NCBI GenBank assembly: GCA_964016885.1
Contig: OZ024742.1
Coordinates: 246,388,001-246,452,000, forward strand
Length of the DNA stretch: 64,000 bases
Source of the DNA: Eledone cirrhosa
Lineage: Eukaryota
Reading direction: 5' to 3'
Position 1 is the first letter of the stretch. The number at the start of each line of letters is the position of its first letter. Of the stretch, positions 4,101-54,850 are shown in pieces. A program made the position numbers and the translations under genes. The notes beneath the pieces were generated by a model. That model had not been told where the DNA came from. It saw only the letters and a program-made list of their open reading frames with translations, and did no database searches.

Positions 4101-4567
4101 ACATGCTCCTGCATAGTCCCAACGTGCATCTAGGATGTCATTCCAATCCCCCGCTAGAAGCAGGGAACGCGACGTTCCCAGAAAAGTCTCCAAACGCTGG
4201 AAGAAGTCGGGCCGTTCAGCTCCGAAAGGGGAGTAGACGGCGACCAGTCTCAAGGCCGCACTTTCACTACTGCCAACGTCTAGCACCAACAAACGACCCT
4301 CCGGGTCCGAGTGCACAACCTGTACGGCAAGACCCAGGTGTTTTTGCAGCAGCACGACAACCCCATCCCACCTCCAGGTTGACAGAGAGATGCATGCACC
4401 TCAAAGTCATCGAAGGTGGGGGCCAGCTGCCGCATGACGCTGATTCGAGTCTCACAGATAACCATTACATTTATACTACATGACCTGAGGTCATTTAGAA
4501 GCTTTGCTTGCTTCCAAGTTGAGCCCAGGCCACGTGCATTCAAACATCCTACTCTTAACACATCCAT
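1131..4567 (-). pseudogene. LINE ORF2 (AP endonuclease, reverse transcriptase, zinc finger), one frameshift near 4365
   Basis: N-terminus MDVLRVGCLNARGL...ICETR (4567-4280) joins the 4355-1131 frame after a G-rich patch. Motifs: GDWN, YLDRF, TDH, KSPGLDG, NFRPITLLN, DQSKAFD, RQGCPLS, YADD, CPRC-x8-H-x4-C. Confidence 0.92.
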
Positions 4568-7150: not shown

Positions 7151-10100
7151 CTACAGGCTGATATAGAGAGAAGGCCCATTCACTCGGGCCATTCTCGCCA
7201 CTTTCACCCACCTTTCATAAAACTTGCTGGGGTACAGCACCTCTCTCTCCATCCTGATTCTTCTTCCAAAGTGGTATTTGAAAAAAAGAATCAGTTGTTG
7301 GCCGGAGAGAAAGGTGTCTGACCTCAGCCCTTTCAACCTTGTCCACCATACAACCTCTTTCGCCATAGCTATCACACAAAGGAAAACCACCTCTCCTTCG
7401 TTTTTGAAGGAGGGTGGCGGTTTGATCATGACAATGGACTCGGTGGTCAACTGGACTGGTCCCACCCGCGACAATAGTCGTTCTACATAGCCCCACAGGT
7501 CAGTGACGCCCGGGCAGTGTATGAATGCGTGCTCGACGGTTTCTTCGTCTCGCACGCACCTCGGACAGATTTTTTTTGCAGGGTCCCTGCCCGGGCGCCC
7601 ATGTCTGTAGAGCTTGTCTCGAACTGGTAGAGCTCCTCGGTAGCACTGCCAGGCCAGGGACTTTTGGAAGTTGTCCATCGGTCCCGGGCGGAAGGTCCTA
7701 CCGAACAGACTGGCCAGTTCATCTTCCTCTACGCCTAGAGTTTCACCGAGCGCGTCGTCGCACTTGCTGCGGACTAACCCTCTATAGAATGACGAAGTGG
7801 AGTCTCCACTGATCGCCGGGTCCGCCTGCCAGAGGGCTGTGAGCGCCTGAGCACATTCGATGTGCCAGTCGCCCATTTTCCTCGGTCTTTGCTTGACCCA
7901 GGACTGCAGCTCGGTCAGCGAGACGAGTCGTGGGAAGGCTTGCCTCACGAACGGGGCCCACACCGGTTGTCCGGTGAGGAATACGTAGAGATGCCGCAGC
8001 CTGAGCGCGTGTTTGCGCATCGTCAACCACGGCATCCCCAGCCCTCCGTTAGAAGGGTGCTGGCAGCAGATGGATCTTCTCACCAAAGGAGCCCGCCTCT
8101 TCCAAAGGAATCGGAAGAGCGCGCGCTCCATTTTGGCGAGCGTTTTGGCTGGACAAGGCACGACGGTCAAGCGGTAGTAGATGGCGGACGCTATAAAAGT
8201 GTTCGCCACCTCCGCTCGACCTTTCAAGGATAGTTTGCACTCAGCCCACTTCTGGGTGAGTGCAAACACCTTGGCCGTCACTTCGTTCCAGTTCTTCTCC
8301 ACCTGGAGGTCCGGACCAAACCAGACCCCGAGCAGCTTTACCGGTCCTTCCGTCCAGCGTCCGACGACGCCATCGGAAGGCATCGGTCTGCCTCTCCACG
8401 ATCCGAGTTGCAAACCGATGGACTTGTCCCGGTTCAGCTTCGCTCCTGTGAGACTTTCGTATTCCTTCAGTAAGGTGCCGACTTCCTCGATTTGCGAGGC
8501 GCTCGACACCATTACTGTCACGTCGTCGGCGTAGGCCGACGCCGCTTTCCGCAGTCCCGGTTCCAGAGGGATGCCCTGCAATAGCTCCAGCTTCCGCAGT
8601 AGTGGCTCGAGAGTCAGTACGTACAGAAGGGAGGAGAGAGGGCATCCCTGTCGAATGGATCGCGTAATATGGAACGGCTCCGAGAGGTAGCCGTTCACCT
8701 TGACCCTTGAGCAGATGTTGCTGTTGTGCATTGCAGCGATCCAGCCCCTGAACACGGGTCCGAAGCCTGCCGCCTCGAGCACCGCATCCAGGTAACGATG
8801 GTCAACCCTATCGAAAGCCTTAGACTGATCCAAGTTGATCAGGGCCCCACCGAAGCCGGGTTTACACCCTACCCTCTCTATGATGTATCGCATGAGGTGG
8901 AGGTTGTCGTGTATGGACCTGGTCGGGATTGCGCATGTCTGCGCTTCTCCCACCAGGTTCTCGACGACAAGCGCCAGCCTCTTTGCCAACACCTTGGCCA
9001 AAATCTGTAACTCTGTGTTTAGCAGAGTTATGGGCCGGAAGTTGCCTATGTCATCCCCCTTATTCTCGTCCTTCCTGATTAGTGTGACCACGCCCCCGGT
9101 TACAGAACTGGGAATTCTCCCGTTCTGTTGCCAGTTGCAGTAGACCGCTTCCAGAAGACCGGAGAATAAGTCCGGCATTACTACGTAAAATTCGTAGGGT
9201 AGACCGTCGAGACCTGGAGATTTGCGTTTGCCGCATTGGCTCAGCGCGTCCCCTATCTCAGTGGCTGAAATCGGCTTTTCGCAGAACTTTGCCTCGCTGT
9301 CCGAGAGTCGCGGTAGGCCGTCGAGGTATGGACCGAAATCCATAGCCTCTCCCGGCGCGCCGCTCCCCCCCGAACAGCCGAGAAAAGTGCCGCTGAAAAG
9401 CCTCACACATCTGCTTCGGCTCACGTATCACGCGTCCGTTTTGGTCCTTCAAAGACCGAATCGTGGACTTGTTGCCACTTTTTGCCTCCGTCACTCGGGC
9501 CCAGCTAACAGCTTTGGCTCCCTCGTTTCCCAGAGCACGTATTTTGCTTCTGACAACGCAACCCTCGTGCTTTGCGTCGAAGAACTGGTCCAAGGCCGTT
9601 CTCGTTGCTAGCACGCTGGCTACGTTGCCACTTCTAATTGCCTCTTCTACTTTATCTACCAGTTCCTTCTCGGTTCTATTTCTATCTAACGCTAAATCTT
9701 TACTAAAAACTATCGAGTCTTATCTAACTGCCCTCTTGAGAGAGTACCACCATCTGTTGTTGACAATGGCCCCTGTCAAGTGCTGTTTAACTAAAGTGCT
9801 AATCCGTCTACTGTAGGCTTTGCTTGTCGGTAACGACAAGTTCAGCTTCCAGTAGCCGGGTCCTTGTCTATGGGTTCTATCAAGGTTGGCCATGCAGGTC
9901 ACTAGTTTGTGATCTGAATAGGCAACCATGAACATTTGTGGACAGCTTAACATGTCCCTATCCTTATTTCTAACTAGAACCCTATCTAGGTACGATCTAG
10001 ATGTTCCGCTACGATTACTCCACGTCCACAGTGGTGCAGTCGGAAAATCTAGTCGATATCTATCGGCCAGGTCAAATCGGTCGATTAACTGTTTGAGGCT

Positions 10101-28145: not shown

Positions 28146-28545
28146 TAAAAATGAAAACACACACACATAGAACAAACAACCAACCAGTAACATGTAAATA
28201 AACAAATAAATAAACAAATAAAAACACACACAGTTACCCGGATGTAACACATGCGTAAACTAAGCACACAACACACACAAAAACAAGATGGCGTAGGACA
28301 GAACAAAGGAGAGGCACAAAACAAAGAGAAGAATCCCCAGTCACTGAAGAGGTCACAGAATGTGTGACGAAAGAACTTTGACAATATATGAACAACCGTC
28401 CGGTTGTGGAACCAACCAACCAACCGGAAATTTATAAATTTAATTTATAATAAATTGGAGTGAAAGCAACTGGTGCGTGTGTTTCTTATTGGCAACATGA
28501 CCCTCCCAAAGTATACCAATATCGGTTTCAACACACGTTTTCAGT
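28146..28545 (+). mobile_element. Family I-related HHR element
   Basis: HHR at 28340-28382: gtca-CTGAAGA-gtcaca/tgtgac-GAAA-gaac-TT-tgac; homolog at ~59645-59930. Confidence 0.7.
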
Positions 28546-29252
28546 ACTAATTAGAGATACCAGAACTATAAAAATTGATGAGCAGAACAAACAAACATTA
28601 AACAATCCTTTAAAAAATAATTTAAATATCTACCTGTTCATAATGCTATTACCGGCGGTTTCCATCCACAAAAGATTGGAAATTCGGAGAATAGCATTAT
28701 GAACAGGTAGATATTTAAATTATTTTTTGATTTATTTAAAGGATTGTTTAATGTTTGTTTGTTCTGCTCATCAATTTTTATAGTTCTGGTATCTCTAATT
28801 AGTTCCATAGAACAACAATTGTATTATGGACACCCTATATATCTCTATGGGTACTTAGTACTCAGTGAGATATTTACCTCATTTTTATATATTCTCCAAT
28901 CTATGTAGAGAAAAAAATTCGTTGTTGCTTACTGCTATTTTTTTAGCAGCCAAGCCATCAACAAGTCTATAATATTCCCGCTTGCTCTAGTGGCCAGGTC
29001 ACGTATGGGTCACTTTAACGGTTATAACTCATACGAGCTGGTAGTTAGCATTATATTTGCGGACCATGGGACATATGTCCTATAGAAAGGAAATAGCTAT
29101 CTGATGAAATCTACTTTCCGTTGGAAATTCTCCGAATTTCTAATCTTTTGTAAATGGAAACCGCCGGTAATAGCATTATGAACAGGTAGATATTTAAATT
29201 ATTTTTTAATTTATTTAAAGGATTGTTTAATGTTTGTTTGTTCTGCTCATCA

Positions 29253-29260
<8 letters not shown>
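28546..29260 (+). mobile_element. Element N: inverted segment (28546-28692), 479-nt monomer (28691-29169) and partial repeat (29170-29260) ending in (TA)n
   Basis: HHR at 29096-29174: gctat-CTGATGA-...-GAAA-ccgccgg-TA-atagc; the sequence after the cleavage site recurs at 28691. Confidence 0.85.
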
Positions 29261-29315
<55 letters not shown>

Positions 29316-36999: not shown

Positions 37000-39900
37000 G
37001 TCCATGTGTGTGTATGTTACAGTGTGTATGTGTGTGTGTGTGTGTGTCTGTATGTTAATGTCTGTGTTACTTTTTGTGTGTGTATCTTACTGCGTATGTA
37101 TGCTAATGTGTGTGTGTGTTAATGTTTGTGTTATTTTGTGTGTATGTGTATGTTACTGTGTGTATGTTACTTTGTCTATGTTACTGTGTGTGTATGTTAC
37201 TGTGTGTGTGTTAATGTGTGTATGTATGATACTGTGTGTGTATATTACTGTTTGTGTATGTTACTGTGTGTGTATGTTACTGTGTGTGTGTATGTTACTA
37301 TGTGTGTGTATGTTACTGTGAGTGTGTATGTTACTGTGTGTGTGTGTGTATGTTACTGTGTGTGTGTATGTTACTGTGTGTGTATGTCACTGTGTGTGTA
37401 TGTTACTGTGTGTGTGTATGTTACTGTGTGTGTATGTTACTGTGTGTGTATGTTACTGTGTGTGTTTATGTTACTCTGTGTGTGGGTATGTTACTGTGTA
37501 TGTATGTTACTGTGTGTATGTTACTGTGTGTGTGTATGTTAATGTGTGTGTGTAAGTTACTGTGTGTGTATGTTACTGTGTGTGTATGTTACTGTGTATG
37601 TTACTGTGTGTGTATGTATGTTACAGTGTGTGTGTTACTGTGTGTGTATGTTACTGTGTGTGTATGTTACTGTGTGTGTGTATGTTACTGTGTGAGTATT
37701 GTACTGTGTGTGTATGTTACTGTGTGTGTGTATGTTACTGTGTGTGTGTATGTTACTGTGTGTGTATGTTTCTGTGTGTGTATGTTACTGTGTGTGTATG
37801 TTACTGTGTGTGTGTATGTTACTGTGTGTGTGTATGTTACTGTCTGTGTATGTTACTGTGTGTGTATGTTACTGTGTGTGTATGTTACTGTGTGTGTGTA
37901 TGTTACTGTGCGTGTGTATGTTACTGTGTGTGTATGTTACTGTGTGTATGTTACTGTGTGTGTGTGTATGTTACTGTGTGTGTATGTTCCAGTGTGTGTA
38001 TGTTACTGTGTGTGTGTATGTTACTGTGTGTGTGTATTTTACTGTGTGTGTGTATGTTACTGTGTGTGTGTATGTTAATGTGTGTATGTTATTGTGTGTG
38101 TGTGTATGTTACTGTGTGTGTATGTTACTGTGTATTTGTATGTTACTGTGTGTGTGTATGTTACTGTGTGTGTATGTTACTGTGTGTGTTTATGTTACTG
38201 TGTGCGTATGTTACTGTGTGTGTTTATGTTACTGTGTGCGTATGTTACTGTGTGTGTATGTTACTGTGTGTGTATGTTACTGTGTGTGTATGTTACTGTG
38301 TGTATATATTAATGTGTGTGTGTATGTTAATGTGTGTGTGTATGTTAGTGTGTGTGTATGTTACTATGTGTGTGTATGTTACTGTGTGTGTATGTTACTG
38401 TGTGTGTGGGTATGTTACTGTGTGTATGTTACTGTGTGTGTGTATGTTACTGTGTGTGTGTATGTTACTGTGTGTGTATGTTACTGTCTGTGTGTATGTT
38501 ACTGTGTGAGTATTGTACTGTGTGTGTATGTTACTGTGTGTGTGCATGGTATTGTGTGTGTATATTACTGTGTGTGTGTGTATGTTACTGTGTGAGTATT
38601 GTACTGTGTGTGTATGTTACTGTGTGTGTGTATGTTACTGTGTGTGTGTGTATGTTACTGTGTGTGTATGTTACTGTGTATGTGTATGTTAATGTGTGTG
38701 TGTGTATGTTAATGTGTGTGTATGTTACTGTGTGTGTATGTTACTGTGTGTGTATGTTACTGTGTGTGTGTGTATGTTACTGTGTGTGTATGTTACTGTG
38801 TGTGTATGTTACTGTGTGTGTGTGTATGTTACTGTGTGTGTATGTTACTGTGTGTGTATGTTACTGTGTGAATATTGTACTGTGTGTGTATGTTACTGTG
38901 TGTGTGTGTATGTTTCTGTGTGTGTATGTTACTGTGTGTGTGTATGTTACTGTGTGTGTATGTTATTGTGTGTGTGTATGTTACTGTATGTGTGTGTATG
39001 TTATTGTGTTTGTATATTACTCTGTGTGTGTATGTTACTGTATGTGAGTGTATGTTATTGTGTTTGTATATTACTCTGTGTGTGTATGTTACTGTGTGTG
39101 TATGTTACTGTGTGTGTATGTTACTGTGTGTGTGTATGTTACTGTCTGTGTATGTTTCTGTGTGTGTATGTTACTGTGTGTGTATGTTACTGTGTGTGTA
39201 TGTTACTGTGTCTGTATATTACTGTGTGTGTATGTTATTGTGTGTGTGTATATTACTGTGTGTGTATGTTACTGTGTGTCTGTATGTTACTGTGTGTATG
39301 TTATTGTGTGTGTATGTTACTGTGTGTGTGTATGTTAATGTGTGTATGTTATTGTGTTTGTATGTTACTCTGTGTGTGTATGTTACTGTGTGTGTACGTT
39401 ACTGTGTGTGTATGTTACTGTGTGTGAATGTTACTGTGTATTTGTATGTTACTGTGTGTGTGTATGTTACTGTGTGTGTATGTTACTGTGTGTGAATGTT
39501 ACTGTGTATTTGTATGTTACTGTGTGTGTGTATGTTAATGTGTGTGTATGTTACTGTGTGTGTATGTTACTGTGTGTGTATGTTACTGTGTGTGTATGTT
39601 CCTGTGTGTGTATGTTAATGTGTGTGTGTATGTTACTGTGTGTGTGTATGTTATTGTGTGTGTATGTTACTGTGTGTGTATGTTACTGTGTGTGTATGTT
39701 AATGTGTGTGTGTATGTTAATGTGTGTGTGTATGTTACTGTGTGTGTGTATGTTACTGTGTGTGTGTTGTTACTGTGTGTGTATGTTACTGTGTGTGTAT
39801 ATTAGTGTGTGTGTGTATGTTACTGTGTGCGTATGTGACTGTGTATGTGTGTTACTGTGTGTGTATATTACTGTGTGTGTATGTTACTGTGTGTATATGT

Positions 39901-42900
39901 TAATGTGTGTGTGTACGTTAATGTGTGTGTGTATGTTACTGTGTGTGTATTTTACTGTGTGTGTATGTTATTGAGTGTGTATGTTACTGTGTGTGTGATA
40001 TTATTGAGTGTGTATGTTACTGTGTGTGTATGGTACTGTGTGTGTATGTTACTGTGTGTGTATGTTACTGTGTGTGTGTTACTGTGTGTGTGTATGTTAC
40101 TGTGTGTGTATGTTACTGTGTGTGTGTATGTTACTGTGTGTGTGTATGTTACTGTGTGTGTATGTTACTGTGTGTGTGTATGTTACTGTGTGTGTATGTT
40201 ACTGTGTATTTGTATGTTACTGTGTGTGTGTATTTTACTGTGTGTATGTTACTGTGTGTGTATGTTACTGTGTGTGTGATATTACTGTGTGTGTATGTTA
40301 CTGTGTGTGTGTATGGTACTGTGTGTGTGTATGTTACTGTGTGTGTATGTTACTCTGTGTGTATGTTACTGTGTGTGTATGTTACTGTGTGTATGTATGT
40401 TACTGTGTGTATGTATGTTACTGTGTGTGTGTATGTTACTGTGTGTGTGTATGTTACTGTGTGTGTGATATTACTGTGTGTGTATGTTACTGTGTGTGTA
40501 TGTTACTGTGTGTATGTATGTTACTGTGTGTGTATGTTACTGTGTCTGTATGTTACTGTGTGTGTGTATGTTACTGTGTGTGTATGTTACTGTGCATTTG
40601 TATGTTACTGTCTGTGTGTATGTTAATGTGTGTGTATGTTACTGTGTGTGTATGTTACTGTGTGTGTATGTTACTGTGTGTGTATGTTACTGTGTGTGTG
40701 TATGTTACTGTGTGTGTTTGTTACTGTGTGTGTATGTTACTGTGTGTGTGTATGTTAATGTGTGTGTGTATGTTAATGTGTGTGAATGTTACTGTGTGTG
40801 TGTATGTTACTGTGTGTGTATGTTACTATGTGTGTGTATATTACTGTGGGTGTATGTGAATGTGTGTGTGTAGGTTACTGTGTGTGTGTATGTTAACGTG
40901 TATGTATGTTACTGTGTGTGTATGTTACTGTGTGTGTGTGTGTATGTTATTGTGTGTGTATGTTACTGTGTGTGTGTATGTTACTGTGTGTGTATGTTAT
41001 TGTGTGTGTATGTTACTGTGTGTGTATGTTAGTGTGTGTGTGTATGTTACTGTGTGTGTATGTTATTGTGTGTGTATGTTACTGTGTGTGTATGTTACTG
41101 TGTGTGTGTATGTTACTGTGTGTGTGTATGTTACTGTGTGTGTATGTTACTGTATGTGTGTATGCTACTGTGTGTGTATGTTACTGTGTGTATGTATGTT
41201 ACTGTGTGTGTGTATGTTACTGTGTGTGTGTATGTTACTGTGTGTGTGATATTACTGTCTGTGTATGTTACTGTGTGTGTATGTTACTGTGTGTATGTAT
41301 GTTACTGTGTGTGTATGTTACTGTGTCTGTATGTTACTGTGTGTGTGTATGTTACTGTGTGTGTATGTTAATGTGTGTGAATGTTACTGTGTGTGTGTAT
41401 GTTACTGTGTGTGTATGTTACTATGTGTGTGTATGTTACTGTGTGTGTATGTGAATGTGTGTGTGTAGGTTACTGTGTGTGTGTATGTTAACGTGTATGT
41501 ATGTTACTGTGTGTGTATGTTACTGTGTGTGTGTGTATGTTATTGTGTGTGTATGTTACTGTGTGTGTGTATGTTACTGTGTGTGTATGTTATTGTGTGT
41601 GTATGTTACTGTGTGTGTATGTTAGTGTGTGTGTGTATGTTACTGTGTGTGTATGTTATTGTGTGTGTATGTTACTGTGTGTGTATGTTACTGTGTGTGT
41701 GTAGGTTACTGTGTGTGTGTATGTTACTGTGTGTGTGTATGTTACTGTGTGTGTATGTTACTGTATGTGTGTATGCTACTGTGTGTGTATGTTACTGTGT
41801 GTATGTATGTTACTGTGTGTGTGTATGTTACTGTGTGTGTGTATGTTACTGTGTGTGTGATATTACTGTGTGTGTATGTTACTGTGTGTGTATGTTACTG
41901 TGTGTATGTATGTTACTGTGTGTGTATGTTACTGTGTCTGTATGTTACTGTGTGTGTGTATGTTACTGTGTGTGTATGTTAATGTGTGTGAATGTTACTG
42001 TGTGTGTGTATGTTACTGTGTGTGTATGTTACTATGTGTGTGTATGTTACTGTGTGTGTATGTGAATGTGTGTGTGTAGGTTACTGTGTGTGTGTATGTT
42101 AACGTGTATGTATGTTACTGTGTGTGTATGTTACTGTGTGTGTGTGTGTATGTTATTGTGTGTGTATGTTACTGTGTGTGTGTATGTTACTGTGTGTGTA
42201 TGTTATTGTGTGTGTATGTTACTGTGTGTGTATGTTAGTGTGTGTGTGTATGTTACTGTGTGTGTATGTTATTGTGTGTGTATGTTACTGTGTGTGTATG
42301 TTACTGTGTGTGTGTAGGTTACTGTGTGTGTGTATGTTACTGTGTGTGTGTATGTTACTGTGTGTGTATGTTACTGTATGTGTGTATGCTACTGTGTGTG
42401 TATGTTACTATGTGTGTGTATGTTACTGTGTGTGTATGTTAATGTGTGTGTGTAGGTTACTGTGTGTGTGTATGTTACTGTGTGTGTATGTTACTGTGTG
42501 TGTATGTTACTGTGTGTATGTTACTGTGGGTGTATGTTACTCTGTGTGTATGTTACTGTGTGTGTATGTTACTGTGTGTGTATGTTACTGTGTGTGTGTG
42601 TTTGTGTGTTACTGTGTGTGTGTATGTTACTGTGTGTGTATATTACTGTGTGTGTATGTTACTGTGTGTGTGTATGTTACTGTGTGTGTATGTTACTGTG
42701 TGTGTATGTTACTGTGTGTGTATGTTACTGTGTGTGTGTATGTTACTGTGTGTGTATGTTATTGTGTGTGATTTGTTACTGTGTGCGTATGTTACTGTGT
42801 GTGTATATTACTGTGTGTGTATGTTACTGTGTGTGTATGCTACTGTGTGTGTGTATGTTACTGTGTGTGTTACTGTGTGTGTATATTACTGTGTGTATGT

Positions 42901-45900
42901 TACTGTGTGTGTGTATGTTACTGCGTGTGTATGTTACTGTGTGTGTATGTTACTGTGTGTGTGTATGTTACTGTGTGTGTATGTTACTGTGTGTGTATGT
43001 AATGTGTGTGTGTGTGTATGTTACTGTGTGTGTATGTTACTGTGTGTGTATATTACTGTGTGTGTATGTTACTGTGTGTATATGTTACTGTGTGTATATG
43101 TTACTGTGTGTATTTGTTACTGTGTGTGTATGTTACTGTGTGTATGTTACTGTGTGTGTGTATGTTACTGTGTGTATGTTACTGTGTGTATATGTTACAG
43201 TGTGTGTATGTTACTGTGTGTATATGTTACTGTGTGTATATGTTACTGTGTGTATTTGTTACTGTGTGTGTATGTTACTGTGTGTATGTTACTGTGTGTA
43301 TGTTACTGTGTGTATATGTTACTGTGTGTATATGTTACTGTGTGTGTATGTTACTGTGTGTATGTTACTGTGTGTGTATGTTACTGTGTGTGTATGTTAC
43401 TGTGTGTATGTTACTGTGTGTGTATGTTACTGTGTGTGTATGTTACTGTGTGTATGTTACTGTGTGTGTATGTTACTGTGTGTGTATGTTACTGTGTGTG
43501 TGTATGTTACTGTGTGTGTATGTTACTGTGTGTGAAAGTTACTGTGTATTTGTATGTTACTGTGTGTGTGTATGTTAATGTGTGTGTATGTTACTGTGTG
43601 TGTATGTTACTGTGTGTGTATGTTACTGTGTGTGTATGTTACTGTGTGTGTATGTTACTGTGTGTATGTTACTGTGTGTGTATGTTACTGTGTGTGTATG
43701 TTACTGTGTGTGTATGTTACTGTGTGTGTGTATGTTACTGTGCGTGTATGTTACTGTGTGTGAATGTTACTGTGTATTTGTATGTTACTGTGTGTGTGTA
43801 TGTTAATGTGTGTGTATGTTACTGTGTGTGTATGTTACTGTGTGTGTATGTTACTGTGTGTGTATGTTACTGTGTGTGTATGTTAATGTGTGTGTGTATG
43901 TTACTGTGTGTGTGTATGTTACTGTGTGTGTATGTTACTGTGTGTGTATGTTACTGTGTGTGTATGTTAATGTGTGTGTGTATGTTAATGTGTGTGTGTA
44001 TGTCACTGTGTGTGTGTATGTTACTGTGTGTGTGTATGTTACTGTGTGTGTATGTTACTGTGTGTGTATATTAGTGTGAGTGTGTATGTTACTGTGTGCG
44101 TATGTGACTGTGTATGTGTGTTACTGTGTGTGTATATTACTGTGTGTGTATGTTACTGTGTGTATATGTTAATGTGTCTGTGTACGTTAATGTGTGTGTG
44201 TATGTTACTGTGTGTGTATTTTACTGTGTGTGTATGTTATTGAGTGTGTATGTTACAGTGTGTGTGATATTACTGAGTGTGTATGTTACTGTGTGTGTAT
44301 GGTACTGTGTGTGTATGTTACTGTGTGTGTATGTTACTGTGTGTGTGTTACTGTGTGTGTGTATGTTACTGTGTGTGTATGTTACTGTGTGTGTGTATGT
44401 TACTGTGTGTGTCTATGTTACAGTGTGTGTATGTTACTGTGTGTGTGTATGTTACTGTGTGTGTATGTTACTGTGTGTGTGTATGTTACTGTGTGTGTAT
44501 GTTACTGTGTATTTGTATGTTACTGTGTGTGTATTTTACTGTGTGTGTATGTTACTGTGTGTGTATGTTACTGTGTGTGTGTATGTTACTGTGTGTGTGA
44601 TATTACTGTGTGTGTATGTTACTGTGTGTGTATGTTACTGTGTGTATGTATGTTACTGTGTGTGTATGTTACTGTGTCTGTATGTTACTGTGTGTGTGTA
44701 TGTTACTGTGTGTGTATGTTACTGTGTATTTGTATGTTACTGTGTGTGTGTATGTTAATGTGTGTGTATGTTACTGTGTGTGTATGTTACTGTGTGTGTA
44801 TGTTACTGTGTGTGTATGTTACTGTGTGTGTGTATGTTACTGTGTGTGTTTGTTACTGTGTGTGTATGTTACTGTGTGTGTGTATGTTAATGTGTGTGTG
44901 TATGTTAATGTGTGTGAATGTTACTGTGTGTGTGTATGTTACTGTGTGTGTATGTTACTATGTGTGTGTATGTTACTGTGTGTGTATGTGAATGTGTGTG
45001 TGTAGGTTACTGTGTGTGTGTATGTTAACGTGTATGTATGTTACTGTGTGTGAATGTTACTGTGTGTGTGTGTGTATGTTATTGTGTGTGTATGTTACTG
45101 TGTGTGTGTATGTTACTGTGTGTGTATGTTATTGTGTGTGTATGTTACTGTGTGTGTATGTTAGTGTGTGTGTGTATGTTACTGTGTGTGTATGTTATTG
45201 TGTGTGTATGTTACTGTGTGTGTATGTTACTGTGTGTGTGTAGATTACTGTGTGTGTGTATGTTACTGTGTGTGTGTATGTTACTGTGTGTGTATGTTAC
45301 TGTATGTGTGTATGCTACTGTGTGTGTATGTTACTATGTGTGTGTATGTTACTGTGTGTGTATGTGAATGTGTGTGTATGTTACTGTGTGTGTATGTTAA
45401 TGTGTGTGTGTAGGTTACTGTGTGTGTGTATGTTACTGTGTGTGTATGTTACTGTGTGTGTATGTTACTGTGTGTATGTTACTGTGGGTGTATGTTACTC
45501 TGTGTGTATGTTACTGTGTGTGTATGTTACTGTGTGTGTATGTTACTGTGTGTGTGTGTTTGTGTGTTACTGTGTGTGTGTATGTTACTGTGTGTGTATG
45601 TTACTGTGTGTGTATGTTACTGTGTGTGTGTATGTTACTGTGTGTGTATGTTACTGTGTGTGTATGTTACTGTGTGTGTATGTTACTGTGTGTGTGTATG
45701 TTACTGTGTGTGTATGTTATTGTGTGTGATTTGTTACAGTGTGCGTATGTTACTGTGTGTGTATATTACTGTGTGTGTATGTTACTGTGTGTGTATGCTA
45801 CTGTGTGTGTGTATGTTACTGTGTGTGTTACTGTGTGTATATTACTGTGTGTATGTTACTGTGTGTGTGTATGTTACTGTGTGTGTATGTTACTGTGTGT

Positions 45901-48900
45901 GTGTATGTTACTGTGTGTGTATGTTACTGTGTGTGTATGTTACTGTGTGTATGTTACTGTGTGTATATGTTACTGTGTGTGTATATTACTGTGTGTGTAT
46001 GTTACTGTGTGTATATGTTACTGTGTGTATTTGTTACTGTGTGTATTTGTTACTGTGTGTGTATGTTACTGTGTGTATGTTACTGTGTGTGTGTATGCTA
46101 CTGTGTGTATGTTACTGTGTGTATATCTTACTGTGTGTGTATGTTACTGTGTGTATATGTTACTGTGTGTATATGTTACTGTGTGTATTTGTTACTGTGT
46201 GTGTATGTTACTGTGTGTATGTTACTGTGTGTATGTTACTGTGTGTGTGTATGTTACTGTGTGTATATGTTACTGTGTGTATTTGTTACTGTGTGTATAT
46301 GTTACTGTGTGTGTATGTTACTGTGTGTATGTTACTGTGTGTGTATGTTACTGTGTGTGTATGTTACTGTGTGTATGTTACTGTGTGTGTATGTTACTGT
46401 GTGTGTATGTTACTGTGTGTATGTTACTGTGTGTGTATGTGAATGTGTGTGTGTAGGTTACTGTGTGTGTGTATGTTAACGTGTATGTATGTTACTGTGT
46501 GTGTATGTTACTGTGTGTGTTTGTGTATGTTATTGTGTGTGTATGTTACTGTGTGTGTGTATGTTACTGTGTGTGTATGTTATTGTGTGTGTATGTTACT
46601 GTGTGTGTATGTTAATGTGTGTGTGTATGTTACTGTGTGTGTATGTTATTGTGTGTGTATGTTACTGTGTGTGTATGTTACTGTGTGTGTGTATGTTACT
46701 GTGTGTGTATGTTACTGTGTGTGTATGTTACTGTGTGTGTATGTTACTGTATGTGTGTATGCTACTGTGTGTGTATGTTACTGTGTGTGTGTATGTTACT
46801 GTGTGTGTATGTGATTGTGTGTGTATGTTACTGTGTGTGTATGTTAATGTGTGTGTGTAGGTTACTGCGTGTGTGTATGTTACTGTGTGTGTGTATGTTA
46901 CTGTGTGTGTATGTTACTGTATGTGTGTATGCTACTGTGTGTGTATGTTACTATGTGTGTGTATGTTACTGTGTGTGTATGTGAATGTGTGTGTATGTTA
47001 CTGTGTGTGTATGTTAATGTGTGTGTGTAGGTTACTGTGTGTGTGTATGTTACTGTGTGTGTATGTTACTGTGTGTGTATGTTACTGTGTGTGTGTGTTT
47101 GTGTGTTACTGTGTGTGTGTATGTTACTGTGTGTGTATGTTACTGTGTGTGTATGTTACTGTGTGTGTGTTTGTGTGTTACTGTGTGTGTGTATGTTACT
47201 GTGTGTGCATGTTACTGTGTGTGTATGTTACTGTGTGTGTGTATGTTACTGTGTGTGTATGTTACTGTGTGTGTATGTTACTGTGTGTGTATGTTACTGT
47301 GTGTGTGTATGTTACTGTGTGTGTGTATGTTAATGTGTGTGTATGTTACTGTGTGTGTGTGTTTGTGTGTTACTGTGTGTGTGTATGTTACTGTGTGTGT
47401 ATGTTACTGTGTGTGTATGTAACTGTGTGTGTGTATGTTACTGTGTGTGTATGTTACTGTGTGTGTATGTTACTGTGTGTGTATGTTACTGTGTGTGTGT
47501 ATGTTACTGTGTGTGTGTATGTTATTGTGTGTGATTTGTTACTGTGTGCGTATGTTACTGTGTGTGTATATTACTGTGTGTGTATGTTACTGTGTGTGTA
47601 TGTTACTGTGTGTGTATGTTACTGTGTGTGTGTGTTTGTGTGTTACTGTGTGTGTGTATGTTACTGTGTGTGTATGTTACTGTGTGTGTATGTTACTGTG
47701 TGTGTGTATGTTACTGTGTGTGTATGTTACTGTGTGTGTATGTTACTGCGTGTGTATGTTACTGTGTGTGTGTATGTTACTGTGTGTGTATGTTATTGTG
47801 TGTGATTTGTTACTGTGTGCGTATGTTACTGTGTGTGTATATTACTGTGTGTGTATGTTACTGTGTGTGTATGCTACTGTGTGTGTGTATGTTACTGTGT
47901 GTGTTACTGTGTGTATATTACTGTGTGTATGTTACTGTGTGTGTGTATGTTACTGTGTGTGTATGTTACTGTGTGAGTGTATGTTACTGTGTGTGTATGT
48001 TACTGTGTGTGTATGTAATGTGTGTGTGTGTGTATGTTACTGTGTGTGTATGTTACTGTGTGTATGTTACTGTGTGTATATGTTACTGTGTGTGTATATT
48101 ACTGTGTGTGTATGTTACTGTGTGTATATGTTACTGTGTGTATTTGTTACTGTGTGTATTTGTTACTGTGTGTGTATGTTACTGTGTGTATGTTACTGTG
48201 TGTGTGTATGTTACTGTGTGTATGTTACTGTGTGTATATCTTACTGTGTGTGTATGTTACTGTGTGTATATGTTACTGTGTGTATATGTTACTGTGTGTA
48301 TTTGTTACTGTGTGTGTATGTTACTGTGTGTATGTTACTGTGTGTGTGTATGTTACTGTGTGTATATGTTACTGTGTGTATTTGTTACTGTGTGTATATG
48401 TTACTGTGTGTGTATGTTACTGTGTGTATGTTACTGTGTGTGTATGTTACTGTGTGTGTATGTTACTGTGTGTATGTTACTGTGTGTGTATGTTACTGTG
48501 TGTGTGTATGTTTCTGTGTGTATATGTTACTGTGTGTATTTGTTACTGTGTGTATATGTTACTGTGTGCGTATGTTAATGTGTGTGAATGTTACTGTGTG
48601 TGTGTATGTTACTGTGTGTGTATGTTACTATGTGTGTGTATGTTACTGTGTGTGTATGTGAATGTGTGTGTGTAGGTTACTGTGTGTGTGTATGTTAACG
48701 TGTATGTATGTTACTGTGTGTGTATGTTACTGTGTGTGTGTGTGTATTTTATTGTGTGTGTATGTTACTGTGTGTGTGTATGTTACTGTGTGTGTATGTT
48801 ATTGTGTGTGTATGTTACTGTGTGTGTATGTTAATGTGTGTGTGTATGTTACTGTGTGTGTATGTTACTGTGTGTGTGTATGTTACTGTGTGTGTATGTT

Positions 48901-51900
48901 ACTGTGTGTGTATGTTACTGTGTGTGTATGTTACTGTATGTGTGTATGCTACTGTGTGTGTATGTTACTGTGTGTGTGTATGTTACTGTGTGTGTATGTG
49001 ATTGTGTGTGTATGTTACTGTGTGTGTATGTTAATGTGTGTGTGTAGGTTACTGCGTGTGTGTATGTTACTGTGTGTGTGTATGTTACTGTGTGTGTATG
49101 TTACTGTATGTGTGTATGCTACTGTGTGTGTATGTTACTATGTGTGTGTATGTTACTGTGTGTGTATGTGAATGTGTGTGTATGTTACTGTGTGTGTATG
49201 TTAATGTGTGTGTGTAGGTTACTGTGTGTGTGTATGTTACTGTGTGTGTATGTTACTGTGTGTGTATGTTACTGTGTGTGTGTGTTTGTGTGTTACTGTG
49301 TGTGTGTATGTTACTGTGTGTGTATGTTACTGTGTGTGTATGTTACTGTGTGTGTGTTTGTGTGTTACTGTGTGTGTGTATGTTACTGTGTGTGTATGTT
49401 ACTGTGTGTGTATGTTACTGTGTGTGTGTATGTTACTGTGTGTGTATGTTACTGTGTGTGTATGTTACTGTGTGTGTATGTTACTGTGTGTGTGTATGTT
49501 ACTGTGTGTGTGTATGTTAATGTGTGTGTATGTTACTGTGTGTGTGTGTTTGTGTGTTACTGTGTGTGTGTATGTTACTGTGTGTGTATGTTACTGTGTG
49601 TGTATGTTACTGTGTGTGTGTATGTTACTGTGTGTGTATGTTACTGTGTGTGTATGTTACTGTGTGTGTATGTTACTGTGTGTGTGTATGTTACTGTGTG
49701 TGTATGTTATTGTGTGTGATTTGTTACTGTGTGCGTATGTTACTGTGTGTGTATATTACTGTGTGTGTATGTTACTGTGTGTGTATATTACTGTGTGTGT
49801 ATGTTACTGTGTGTGTATGTTACTGTGTGTGTATGTTACTGTGTGTGTGTTTGTGTGTTACTGTGTGTGTGTATGTTACTGTGTGTGTATGTTACAGTGT
49901 GTGTATGTTACTGTGTGTGTGTATGTTACTGTGTGTGTATGTTACTGTGTGTGTATGTTACTGCGTGTGTATGTTACTGTGTGTGTGTATGTTACTGTGT
50001 GTGTATGTTATTGTGTGTGATTTGTTACTGTGTGCGTATGTTACTGTGTGTGTATATTACTGTGTGTGTATGTTACTGTGTGTGTATGCTACTGTGTGTG
50101 TGTATGTTACTGTGTGTGTTACTGTGTGTATATTACTGTGTGTATGTTACTGTGTGTGTGTATGTTACTGTGTGTGTATGTTACTGTGTGTGTGTATGTT
50201 ACTGTGTGTGTATGTTACTGTGTGTGTATGTAACGTGTGTGTGTGTGTATGTTACTGTGTGTGTATGTTACTGTGTGTATGTTACTGTGTGTATATGTTA
50301 CTGTGTGTGTATATTACTGTGTGTGTATGTTACTGTGTGTATATGTTACTGTGTGTATTTGTTACTGTGTGTATTTGTTACTGTGTGTGTATGTTACTGT
50401 GTGTGTGTATGTTACTGTGTGTATGTTACTGTGTGTATGTTACTGTGTGTATATCTTACTGTGTGTGTATGTTACTGTGTGTATATGTTACTGTGTGTAT
50501 ATGTTACTGTGTGTATTTGTTACTGTGTGTGTATGTTACTGTGTGTATGTTACTGTGTGTGTGTATGTTACTGTGTGTATATGTTACTGTGTGTATTTGT
50601 TACTGTGTGTATATGTTACTGTGTGTGTATGTTACTGTGTGTATGTTACTGTGTGTGTATGTTACTGTGTGTGTATGTTACTGTGTGTATGTTACTGTGT
50701 GTGTATGTTACTGTGTGTGTATGTTACTGTGTGTGTGTATGTTACTGTGTGTATATGTTACTGTGTGTTTTTGTTACTGTGTGTATATGTTACTGTGTGC
50801 GTATGTTAATGTGTGTGAATGTTACTGTGTGTGTGTATGTTACTGTGTGTGTATGTTACTATGTGTGTGTATGTTACTGTGTGTGTATGTGAATGTGTGT
50901 GTGTAGGTTACTGTGTGTGTGTATGTTAACGTGTATGTATGTTACTGTGTGTGTATGTTACTGTGTGTGTGTGTGTATGTTATTGTGTGTGTATGTTACT
51001 GTGTGTGTGTACGTTACTGTGTGTGTATGTTATTGTGTGTGTATGTTACTGTGTGTGTATGTTAATGTGTGTGTGTATGTTACTGTGTGTGTATGTTATT
51101 GTGTGTGTATGTTACTGTGTGAGTATGTTACTGTGTGTGTGTATGTTACTGTGTGTGTATGTTACTGTGTGTGTATGTTACTGTGTGTGTATGTTACTGT
51201 ATGTGTGTATGCTACTGTGTGTGTATGTTACTGTGTGTGTGTATGTTACTGTGTGTGTATGTGATTGTGTGTGTATGTTACTGTGTGTGTATGTTAATGT
51301 GTGTGTGTAGGTTACTGCGTGTGTGTATGTTACTGTGTGTGTGTATGTTACTGTGTGTGTATGTTACTGTATGTGTGTATGCTACTGTGTGTGTATGTTA
51401 CTATGTGTGTGTATGTTACTGTGTGTGTATGTGAATGTGTGTGTATGTTACTGTGTGTGTATGTTAATGTGTGTGTGTAGGTTACTGTGTGTGTGTATGT
51501 TACTGTGTGTATGTTACTGTGTGTGTATGTTACTGTGTGTGTGTGTTTGTGTGTTACTGTGTGTGTGTATGTTACTGTGTGTGTATGTTACTGTGTGTGT
51601 ATGTTACTGTGTGTGTGTTTGTGTGTTACTGTGTGTGTGTATGTTACTGTGTGTGTATGTTACTGTGTGTGTATGTTACTGTGTGTGTGTATGTTACTGT
51701 GTGTGTATGTTACTGTGTGTGTATGTTACTGTGTGTGTATGTTACTGTGTGTGTGTATGTTACTGTGTGTGTGTATGTTAATGTGTGTGTATGTTACTGT
51801 GTGTGTGTGTTTGTGTGTTACTGTGTGTGTGTATGTTACTGTGTGTGTATGTTACTGTGTGTGTATGTTACTGTGTGTGTGTATGTTACTGTGTGTGTAT

Positions 51901-54850
51901 GTTATTGTGTGTGTATGTTACTGTGTGTGTATGTTACTGTGTGTGTGTATGTTACTGTGTGTGTATGTTATTGTGTGTGATTTGTTACTGTGTGCGTATG
52001 TTACTGTGTGTGTATATTACTGTGTGTGTATGTTACTGTGTGTGTATGCTACTGTGTGTGTGTATGTTACTGTGTGTGTTACTGTGTGTGTATATTACTG
52101 TGTGTATGTTACTGTGTGTGTGTATGTTACTGTGTGTGTATGTTACTGTGTGTGTATGTTACTGTGTGTGTGTATGTTACTGTGTGTGTATGTTACTGTG
52201 TGTGTATGTAATGTGTGTGTGTGTGTATGTTGCTGTGTGTGTATGTTCCTGTGTGTATGTTACTGTGTGTATATGTTACTGTGTGTGTATATTACTGTGT
52301 GTGTATGTTACTGTGTGTATATGTTACTGTGTGTATATGTTACTGTGTGTATTTGTTACTGTGTGTGTATGTTACTGTGTGTATGTTACTGTGTGTGTGT
52401 ATGTTACTGTGTGTATGTTACTGTGTGTATATGTTACTGTGTGTGTATGTTACTGTGTGTATATGTTACTGTGTGTATATGTTACTGTGTGTATTTGTTA
52501 CTGTGTGTGTATGTTACTGTGTGTATGTTACTGTGTGTGTGTATGTTACTGTGTGTATATGTTACTGTGTGTATTTGTTACTGTGTGTATATGTTACTGT
52601 GTGTGTATGTTACTGTGTGTATGTTACTGTGTGTGTATGTTACTGTGTGTGTATGTTACTGTGTGTATGTTACTGTGTGTGTATGTTACTGTGTGTGTAT
52701 GTTACTGTGTTTATGTTACTGTGTGTGTATGTTACTGTGTGTGTATGTTACTGTGTGTATGTTACTGTGTGTGTGTATGTTACTGTGTGTATATGTTACT
52801 GTGTGTATTTGTTACTGTGTGTATATGTTACTGTGTGCGTATGTTAATGTGTGTGAATGTTACTGTGTGTGTGTATGTTACTGTGTGTGTATGTTACTAT
52901 GTGTGTGTATGTTACTGTGTGTGTATGTGAATGTGTGTGTGTAGGTTACTGTGTGTGTGTATGTTAACGTGTATGTATGTTACTGTGTGTGTATGTTACT
53001 GTGTGTGTGTGTGTGTATGTTATTGTGTGTGTATGTTACTGTGTGTGTATGTTAATGTGTGTGTGTATGTTACTGTGTGTGTATGTTATTGTGTGTGTAT
53101 GTTACTGTGTGTGTATGTTACTGTGTGTGTGTATGTTACTGTGTGTGTATGTTACTGTGTGTGTATGTTACTGTGTGTGTATGTTACTGTATGTGTGTAT
53201 GCTACTGTGTGTGTATGTTACTGTGTGTGTGTATGTTTCTATGTGTGTATGTGATTGTGTGTGTATGTTACTGTGTGTGTATGTTAATGTGTGTGTGTAG
53301 GTTACTGTGTGTGTGTATGTTACTGTGTGTGTGTATGTTACTGTGTGTGTATGTTACTGTATGTGTGTATGCTACTGTGTGTGTATGTTACTATGTGTGT
53401 GTATGTTACTGTGTGTGTATGTGAATGTGTGTGTATGTTACTGTGTGTGTATGTTAATGTGTGTGTGTAGGTTACTGTGTGTGTGTATGTTACTGTGTGT
53501 GTATGTTACTGTGTGTGTATGTTACTGTGTGTATGTTACTGTGGGTGTATGTTACTGTGTGTGTATGTTACTGTGTGTGTATGTTACTGTGTGTGTATGT
53601 TACTGTGTGTGTGTGTTTGTGTGTTACTGTGTGTGTGTATGTTACTGTGTGTGTATGTTACTGTGTGTGTATGTTACTGTGTGTGTGTATGTTACTGTGT
53701 GTGTATGTTACTGTGTGTGTATGTTACTGTGTGTGTATGTTACTGTGTGTGTGTATGTTACTGTGTGTGTATGTTATTGTGTGTGATTTGTTACTGTGTG
53801 CGTATGTTACTGTGTGTGTATATTACTGTGTGTGTATATTACTGTGTGTGTATGCTACTGTGTGTGTGTATGTTACTGTGTGTGTTACTGTGTGTGTATA
53901 TTACTGTGTGTATGTTACTGTGTGTGTGTATGTTACTGTGTGTGTATGTTACTGTGTGTGTATGTTACTGTGTGTGTGTATGTTACTGTGTGTGTATGTT
54001 ACTGTGTGTGTATGTAATGTGTGTGTGTGTGTATGTTACTGTGTGTGTATGTTACTGTGTGTATGTTACTGTGTGTATATGTTTCTGTGTGTGTATATTA
54101 CTGTGTGTGTATGTTAATGTGTGTATATGTTACTGTGTGTATATGTTACTGTGTGTATTTGTTACTGTGTGTGTATGTTACTGTGTGTATGTTACTGTGT
54201 GTGTGTATGTTACTGTGTGTTTGTTACTGTGTGTATATGTTACTGTGTGTGTATGTTACTGTGTGTATATGTTACTGTGTGTATATGTTACTGTGTGTAT
54301 TTGTTACTGTGTGTGTATGTTACTGTGTGTATGTTACTGTGTGTGTGTATGTTACTGTGTGTATATGTTACTGTGTGTATTTGTTACTCTGTGTATATGT
54401 TACTGTGTGTGTATGTTACTGTGTGTATGTTACTGTGTGTGTATGTTACTGTGTGTGTATGTTACTGTGTGTATGTTACTGTGTGTGTATGTTACTGTGT
54501 GTGTATGTTACTGTGTGTATGTTACTTTGTGTGTATGTTACTGTGTCTGTATGTTACTGTGTGTATGTTACTGTGTGTGTGTATGTTACTGTGTGTATAT
54601 GTTACTGTGTGTATTTGTTACTGTGTGTATATGTTACTGTGTGCGTATGTTACTGTGTGCGTATGTTACTGTGTGTATGTTACTGTGTGTGTATGTTACT
54701 GTGTGTATATGTTATTGTGTGTGTATGTTACTGTGTGTGTATGTTACTGTGCGGGTATGTTACTGTGTGTGTGTGTATGTTCATGTGTGTGTGCGTGTGT
54801 GTGTTATGCTACTATGTGTTACCGTGTGTCTCTGTGTTACTGTGAGCATA
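37000..54850. repeat. ~18-kb satellite of TATGTTAC(TG)n units (mostly 14-18 bp) with higher-order repeats
   Basis: Directly visible; rare variant units recur at ~0.6, ~2.0-2.2 and ~4.1-4.3 kb spacings. Confidence 0.97.

Follow-up and report, generated by a model that had tools for sequence, protein, structure and literature searches.

A 479-bp-period non-coding repeat with a hammerhead-like motif and a Penelope-type insertion footprint in Eledone cirrhosa

Animal non-long-terminal-repeat (non-LTR) retrozymes are described as non-coding, AT-rich repeats some hundreds of base pairs long (the range quoted is 150-450 bp) that carry one type-I hammerhead motif per unit, are predicted to give structured RNAs and occur in long tandem arrays; they co-exist with many Penelope-like elements (PLEs), their proposed mobilisers (Cervera and de la Pena 2020, PMC7229834; PMC7761336). 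The same link has been argued from the phylogeny of PLE pseudo-LTRs (pLTRs) by Li, Clavereau and Pollet 2026 (bioRxiv 10.64898/2026.07.22.740005). PLE insertions are partial tandems, strongly truncated on the 5' side and with terminal redundancy of the pLTR kind; a second copy, inverted and itself 5'-truncated, is joined at the 5' end, the 'tail' is often confined to one end, and (TA)n is the preferred target (Craig et al. 2021, PMC8557442). For Poseidon PAc of the green anole, the purified protein cleaves and extends both DNA strands at AT-rich sites, starts copying at two positions inside the RNA, which delimit the 'tail', and uses mostly unprocessed RNA as template (Frangieh et al. 2024, PMC11167929). 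The role of hammerheads in PLEs and animal retrozymes is described as unknown in PMC7761336 and PMC8557442. In this work, we analyze a window of 64,000 nt of Eledone cirrhosa DNA (assembly GCA_964016885.1, contig OZ024742.1, positions 246,388,001-246,452,000 of the forward strand; coordinates below count from the first letter of this whole stretch) and one repeat insertion within it, at 28546-29261, together with its family in the genome.

We read this element as one insertion of an abundant non-coding repeat with a 479-bp period and a hammerhead-like motif, laid down as two back-to-back arms in (TA)n DNA and probably written by a PLE reverse transcriptase (RT) that used each of the two cut DNA ends as a primer; the forward arm begins at the predicted ribozyme cut, and the chances that this start records a self-cleaved RNA end are about evenly balanced. 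The insertion is one copy of a protein-less mobile repeat that constitutes a new family of a known kind, and the association of a retrozyme-like RNA with a PLE-type insertion signature, which the original prediction proposed for this locus, is correct and already in print (PMC7229834, PMC7761336, bioRxiv 10.64898/2026.07.22.740005). By itself the window copy is ordinary. The useful part lies in the family-level numbers, which add two sets of observations: a strict pairing of one short-end with one long-end arm, and an excess of 5' ends at the predicted cut that is small in share but ranks first along the unit. Hundreds of dated insertions per family of this sort offer 5' joins that can be read against the predicted cut site, making two questions testable from sequence alone: whether a cleaved RNA ever serves as template, and how a dimeric enzyme uses its two start sites.

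In composition the unit resembles an animal non-LTR retrozyme. It has a G+C content of 33.6%, its longest stop-free stretch is 65 aa when read as a trimer, which marks it as non-coding, and it carries one type-I hammerhead-like motif; folded as RNA, it reaches z = -4.8, and none of 100 shuffles folds equally well. Unlike the animal retrozymes described, it exceeds the quoted size range, its helix II is long (about 47 nt) and unmatched in Rfam, and in the loci sampled it takes the form of dispersed insertions of at most about two units rather than long tandem arrays. The likeness to PLE insertions extends to the strong 5' truncation, the pLTR-like terminal redundancy, the inverted 5'-joined copy, the one-end 'tail' and the (TA)n preference, whereas the present repeat has no open reading frame (ORF) and its 'tail' measures 110 nt (unit 93-202) against 30-40 bp (PMC8557442).

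Within the window, a repeat finder reports a 93-nt direct repeat at 99% identity with a spacing of 479 (28690-28782 = 29169-29261). The forward arm (28691-29261, plus strand) consists of one full unit of 479 nt, bounded at either end by a predicted cut site (28691-29169), followed by a terminal partial unit of 92 nt (29170-29261, unit 1-92, 98.9% identical to the unit by BLAST), or 1.2 units in all. This agrees with the earlier description of one 479-nt cleavage-to-cleavage monomer plus some 90 nt fused to (TA)n. The partial unit stops at the canonical 'short' 3' terminus of the family (...TCATCAATTTTTATA), its last letters being ...TTTTTATA, and continues directly into a (TA)n microsatellite (29262-29312), the right-side target, after which CA, TA-like and GA runs follow.

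The inverted arm (28546-28692, minus strand) corresponds, in reverse complement, to unit 437-479 (28650-28692, 93% by BLAST) followed by unit 1-113 (28546-28649, 92% over 113 columns, with a single gap of 9 columns). In the repeat finder it appears as two inverted segments, of 83 nt at 96% (I1) and 72 nt at 99% (I2); I1 ends at 28692, while the direct repeat starts at 28690. Of the hammerhead-like motif the arm holds the last 43 nt on the 3' side, in keeping with the predicted half ribozyme, but what was taken for a short tail amounts to 113 nt. The two arms are joined 5' to 5' through an AAT microhomology (28690-28692) common to both 5' ends. The join falls somewhere in these three nucleotides, and the forward arm may therefore start, counted from the predicted cut, at -1, +1, +2 or +3; the proposed start at 28691 stands, with an ambiguity of three nucleotides instead of one. 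Both arms also cross an intact unit junction, the forward arm at 29169|29170 and the inverted arm at 28649|28650, so that the suggested read-through of a second, intact junction by the RT is seen directly.

The two arms appear to derive from different templates. The order unit 437-479 + 1-113 is contiguous nowhere in the forward arm. The inverted and forward versions of the ribozyme motif differ at three positions, all of them subfamily-diagnostic sites in helix II (C for U; GG for AA), and the inverted arm lacks nine nucleotides, unit 39-47 (gap near 28611; counterpart at 28729-28737 in the forward arm), whereas the two duplicated 93-nt stretches of the forward arm differ at one position only. 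Together these features indicate copying from non-identical units, and snap-back of a single complementary DNA (cDNA) was accordingly rejected as the source of the inverted arm. In the 55 pairs of the family whose arms overlap by 60 nt or more, the median identity between arms is 96.9%, and the pair in the window copy is among the least alike. The same observations bear on twin priming of the kind used by long interspersed nuclear elements (LINEs), acting on one RNA without any PLE. L1 twin priming yields inverted 5' segments, and LINE ORFs with endonuclease, RT and zinc-finger domains lie in this very window; yet an origin by twin priming or snap-back is highly improbable, given the non-contiguous arm, the diagnostic differences and the 9-nt deletion, and given that PLEs would account for the mixed arm ends described below (74 of 84 pairs), for the missing poly(A), for the partial tandem and for the ribozyme motif.

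The repeat is abundant in the 3.0-Gb genome: first-look BLAST returns 1842 candidates for the unit and 1623 for a 331-nt inner piece of it, 40 of which were scored in each case. Among the 30 best loci, nearly every copy lies in (TA)n and many have an inverted arm joined to the forward arm; the arms end at two fixed places, unit 92 (...TCATCAATTT(A/T)TATA) and unit 202 (...CCTCATTTTTATATAT). These 30 loci were kept out of the statistics because they are biased toward full units. Exact patterns of end plus TA occur genome-wide 135 times for the short end (unit 92) and 47 times for the long end (unit 202), and reversed controls give none. Both termini contain CTCAT(CAA)TTTTTATA, at unit 74-92 (28764-28782) and unit 186-202 (28876-28892), and when the unit is folded in silico each comes immediately 3' of a hairpin. 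To avoid selection on length, arms were sampled by their 3' end only, using 100 of the 135 short-end places and all 47 long-end places, and arm length was measured by leftward X-drop alignment along an unrolled copy of the window unit. The TA run extends 7-26 nt past the 3' end in 102 of the 147 arms. Upstream of the 5' end, 84 arms meet an inverted partner arm, 29 a TA run, 12 rearranged forward element sequence and 22 other sequence, as counted before de-duplication. Removal of five segmental duplicates (L053, L116, L117, L164, L165) leaves 142 arms, 97 short-end and 45 long-end.

Pairing between arms follows a strict rule. Short-end arms with a partner (n = 52) are joined to a long-end arm in 43 cases, to a short-end arm in five and to another end in four, while long-end arms with a partner (n = 32) face a short-end arm in 31. 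In total, 74 of 84 pairs combine unit 92 with unit 202, six are like with like and four are other, against about 38% mixed pairs expected if ends were chosen independently at the 135:47 frequencies; read by eye, a TA run closes the partner's outer flank in 75 of 84 cases. The window copy is one of the four others, its partner ending at unit 113, flush with an unrelated repeat, where the family norm is unit 202. The pairing rule predicts that this inverted arm was a long-end arm, which agrees with its running past unit 92; unit 114-202 and the TA flank of this arm have apparently been lost.

This footprint is the one reported for PLEs: a terminally redundant partial tandem whose 5' end meets a 5'-truncated copy in inverse orientation, as in the window copy (84 of 147 family arms have such a partner), two alternative 3' termini with the 'tail' at one end only (74 of 84 pairs), and an AT-rich or (TA)n target, present on the right side only at the window locus. 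It matches equally what is described for PAc, namely cutting and extension of two strands, two internal RT starts, AT-rich sites and mostly unprocessed templates (PMC11167929). Canonical PLEs are present and often stand beside TA runs, and the genome is very rich in them: the Pfam GIY-YIG domain gives 10,596 candidates, all 150 scored lie above the cut-off, and two intact ORFs of 938 and 748 aa combine RVT_1 with a C-terminal GIY-YIG domain (L217:2509-5322, minus strand; L218:1776-4019, plus strand). Three GIY-YIG loci, separate from the eight compared with the unit below, served only to confirm RT plus GIY-YIG ORFs.

A mechanism consistent with these data would run as follows. A dimeric PLE RT/endonuclease would cut AT-rich DNA on both strands, and cDNA synthesis would begin at two internal RNA sites, both of the form CUCAU..UUUUUAUA and just 3' of hairpins. 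The two antisense cDNAs would then extend toward each other and be joined by microhomology. The templates would be mostly linear RNAs of about 1.2-1.45 units with a pLTR-body-pLTR-like layout, some of them cut at the upstream ribozyme; an RNA starting at +1 may be too short for initiation at unit 92 and long enough for initiation at unit 202. Two observations speak against a PLE origin. The window copy has a truncated inverted arm and no (TA)n on its left side, and BLAST of the unit against eight GIY-YIG loci (of about 10,600 candidates) gives a best E value of 0.003 over 25 nt, which is chance level, with no autonomous partner sharing sequence among them.

The hammerhead-like motif lies at 29096-29174 on the plus strand and shows, on a reading of the sequence, a full core and three helices. 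Helix I pairs GCUAU with AUAGC (29096-29100 with 29170-29174), CUGAUGA follows at 29101-29107, the long helix II of about 47 nt spans 29109-29155, where AUCUAC/GUAAAU closes an inner hairpin of 10-11 bp, with an unpaired A before it and an unpaired G after it, GAAA stands at 29157-29160, and helix III (ACC/GGU with a 3-nt loop) occupies 29160-29168, followed by GUA with the cut predicted after A29169. All core requirements (C3 U4 G5 A6 N7 G8 A9, G12 A13 A14, A15.1-U16.1, and H17 other than G) are present, in CUGAUGA (29101-29107), GAA (29157-29159), the pair A29160-U29168 and H17 = A29169; helices II and III are closed by loops and helix I is open, the arrangement of a type-I hammerhead. A hand-written descriptor (core plus at least five of six pairs in helix II, at least three in helix III and at least four in helix I) matches once on the two strands of the 64-kb window, at 29096-29174, and 0.01 times on average in 200 dinucleotide shuffles, two of which contain a match.

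Comparison of 91 distinct family copies supports the fold. Standard pairs fill 97.4% of 2269 pair cells over 25 pairs, against 33-44% when the 3' partners are slid. In helix II, 56 copies have CG at pair 37-80 where 23 have UA, a compensatory change, and pair 49-67 is GC in 65, GU in 19 and AU in four. N7 is the sole common polymorphism of the core (U in 76, A in 14, G in one), the other core positions having at most three variants each. The lax descriptor accepts 67 of the 91 copies and the strict one 58; the window copy has a C.A mismatch in helix II.

Several features count against a functional hammerhead. Besides this mismatch, the base of helix II shows A.G in place of G-C (A29108 faces G29156), and it does so throughout the family, with A in column 34 in 91 of 91 copies and G in column 83 in 87 of 91; a G10.1-C11.1 pair is usual, and quasi-conserved, at this place in hammerheads. 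Helices I and III are invariant and thus contribute no covariation. The Rfam hammerhead models give no match to the window at the gathering threshold, nor at E <= 10 on 1.2 kb or 111 nt, and a search of 16 loci finds no hammerhead. The site proposed originally at 29096-29174, with the cut after 29169, has the full core and three helices, while no Rfam model matches it and helix II carries a mismatch. The motif is hammerhead-like, with good comparative support for helix II, and is best called a predicted ribozyme.

If RNAs were cut there in vivo and then copied, arms should tend to begin at the predicted site, and the original prediction proposed mapping the 5' ends of the family for this purpose. 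The 5' ends of the 142 arms spread along the whole unit, with a mean fall-off of 0.0037 per nt. With expected numbers computed from the arms still running at each position, the 6-nt window from -5 to +1 holds nine ends against 2.44 expected (P = 0.001) and ranks first of 479 such windows, the next unrelated ones reaching P values of only about 0.02. The nine ends lie at -5 (L123), -4 (L088), -2 (L201), -1 (L129, L186, L190 and the window copy, L090) and +1 (L174, L175). L186 is an internal rearrangement and no arm end; without it, eight ends remain (P = 0.004). The predicted cut is therefore the commonest single start of copies, yet only about 6% begin there, and the mapping delivers a top-ranked peak of modest size.

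The excess depends on which junction an arm meets. Short-end arms that reach +1 at their first junction (76) end at -5 to +1 once, with 1.69 expected, whereas long-end arms at their first junction (27 reaching) do so four times against 0.60 expected (Fisher P = 0.016). Short-end arms at their second junction (11 reaching) end there three times against 0.24 expected, which differs from their first junction (P = 0.006), and the only long-end arm that reaches its second junction ends there as well (0.02 expected). The absence of an excess at the first junction of short-end arms, where the sequence is the same, implies that sequence alone does not explain the excess elsewhere.

A good deal weighs against self-cleavage as the source of these ends. 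The great majority of arms (133 of 142) end away from the site, and a single short-end arm out of 76 terminates at its first junction. Nor do the 84 partner arms accumulate 5' ends at the site when these are mapped by BLAST, 476 being the only position in -5 to +1 represented. The TA-like, palindromic sequence of the site itself (TAAT AGC ATTA) lends itself to joining by microhomology; its TAATA could be such a microhomology, TA-like flanks stand beside three of the nine site ends, and other TA-like spots are also hot for 5' ends, at +8 (TATGAAC), +40 and 87-89 (TATAG). For PAc in vitro, ribozyme cleavage is reported as dispensable, and no RNA-seq reads are reported to begin or end at the cut site (PMC11167929); the present family differs from PAc in the small, top-ranked share of insertions that begins at the predicted cut. 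A parallel is offered by R2 and other non-LTR elements with ribozymes resembling that of hepatitis delta virus (HDV), in which self-cleavage sets the RNA 5' end and can be read from insertion junctions (PMC3774820, PMC7761336), although ribozyme and element class are different and the cut in those elements lies at the 5' boundary and holds for full-length copies generally, where ours concerns a minority. In the literature searched, we found no study that maps the 5' junctions of retrozymes or PLEs relative to the hammerhead cut, and we make no claim that such a map is absent from print.

A joining artefact is the most serious competitor of a cleaved 5' end. Random truncation of the cDNA, with the join settled on the AAT/TAATA microhomology at the site, would account for the 3-nt AAT shared in the window copy, for the clustering of 5' joins to (TA)n at the other TA-like spots (+8, 87-89 and +40), for the three site ends with TA-like flanks and for the 94% of arms that end elsewhere. 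Against it stand the first rank of the site after normalisation for exposure, the five of nine site ends that adjoin inverted arms or non-TA sequence, and the missing excess at the first junction of short-end arms; we regard this explanation as possible, though short of an even chance. Alternatively, the RNA 5' end at +1 could be a transcription start driven by an internal promoter downstream of +1. Promoter elements in unit 93-202 would explain why first-junction stops occur in arms ending at unit 202 (4 of 27) rather than in those ending at unit 92 (1 of 76), and the pLTRs of PLEs are reported to hold promoters (PMC11167929). Such a promoter is hypothetical here, and it would not explain why the start falls 1-2 nt or less from the H17 position predicted by a hammerhead core that is complete. 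The sense strand also contains runs of T5-T7, which argue against RNA polymerase III, an enzyme terminated by T runs, and we consider a promoter origin distinctly unlikely. Cleavage remains the reading we retain for part of the data: some templates likely ended at the predicted cut site and most did not, so that a self-cleaved 5' end is plausible in a minority of the family, neither the rule nor proven, and plausible, with near-equal chances for and against, in the window copy. The original prediction of a template 5' end made by self-cleavage is thereby partly supported: the excess at the cut (nine against 2.44) speaks for it, and the 133 arms that end elsewhere speak against it.

The length of the arms bears on the form of the template. 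Among the 97 short-end arms 76 reach the first junction, as do 27 of the 45 long-end ones, and 54 of the 76 short-end arms run more than 113 nt beyond, whereas at the second junction only two of 11 do so (Fisher P = 0.0012); of the remaining short-end arms there, three stop at the cut and six at -35 to -83. A second sample of 42 rows (one of them the second unit of an arm already counted), for which the unit's inner part served as anchor, shows a similar pattern, with ends at +1, +1, -1, -5 and -9 and at -35, -48, -58, -83, -89, -91 and -113, together with four longer arms. The drop in survival past the second junction suggests linear templates of limited length, and RNAs of about 1.2-1.45 units fit better than long multimers or rolling-circle copying, on small numbers. 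Long arrays were not seen in the loci examined, which sample the genome.

Rolling-circle reverse transcription of a monomeric circular RNA, in which arms longer than one unit would carry the re-ligated junction, has some points in its favour: arms cross intact junctions, the first being reached in the numbers just given, six of the 42 core-anchored rows are arms of about one unit starting at unit 87-89, and animal retrozyme RNAs are reported as circles, for which target-primed copying has been proposed (PMC7229834). We nevertheless hold it to be unlikely, since survival collapses just past the second junction, no arm among the 142 exceeds 973 nt (2.03 units), a circle has no 5' end and predicts no stop at the site, and the one-unit arms all start at a TATA tract where microhomology may also act. 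A broader proposal joins linear templates and cleavage, taking the insertions as a fossil record of in vivo hammerhead self-cleavage on PLE-type templates: about a quarter to a third of arms would stop exactly at the cut at upstream junctions, the Penelope-type enzyme would use cleaved linear RNAs of about 1.2 units and not circles, and initiation at the short site would need more than about 91 nt of upstream RNA. This proposal we put forward tentatively, as one that may well prove wrong.

Two further features of the 5' ends were recorded. One-unit arms, of about 479-483 nt between TA runs, start at unit 87-89 (TATAG) in L136, L140, L144, L146, L149 and L153, and also in L102; the cluster could reflect TA microhomology or one turn of a circular template. 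A second hot spot, at unit +40 just after a T6 run, holds seven ends against 3.1 expected and is the place of the 9-nt deletion in the window's inverted arm, where slippage or pausing of the RT may have occurred.

Several neighbouring repeats were noted at the locus and in the family's flanks. The outer end of the inverted arm adjoins an unrelated, very high-copy repeat (28319-28545) with a summed contig depth of about 1e6 over 28334-28537, compared with 1e3-1e4 over the element (contigs of one sample, genomic-DNA-like). Its loose ends lie at 28318/19, 28522 and 28544; other copies have a TA run after 28522 and a different continuation after 28544, indicating that the copy at 28319-28545 is itself truncated. 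At least two other repeat families end at the same (TA)n runs as the present one (...CTTACTTGTTCC|TATA and ...CAATTCCTTCG|TATA; L030:2053-2330 and the flanks of L016, L019 and L028), often as mirror-image pairs around the microsatellite, which suggests that several TA-targeting families share sites. In the TA-flanked family of the L030 flank, GAAAC and GUC are present and CUGANGA was not found within 200 nt.

The window also contains two LINE-type ORFs on the minus strand, at 1131-4355 (1074 aa) and 7151-9424 (757 aa), both with RVT_1 and zf-RVT domains and the former with an additional Exo_endo_phos endonuclease domain; the footprint of the present element, with no poly(A), a partial tandem, the 'tail' rule and a ribozyme motif, points to PLEs and not to LINEs. 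Farther along, a satellite array with a 16-bp unit (TGTGTGTGTATGTTAC) occupies 37005-54776 (17.8 kb, about 1084 copies, 85% matches) and generates spurious ORFs in all plus-strand frames.

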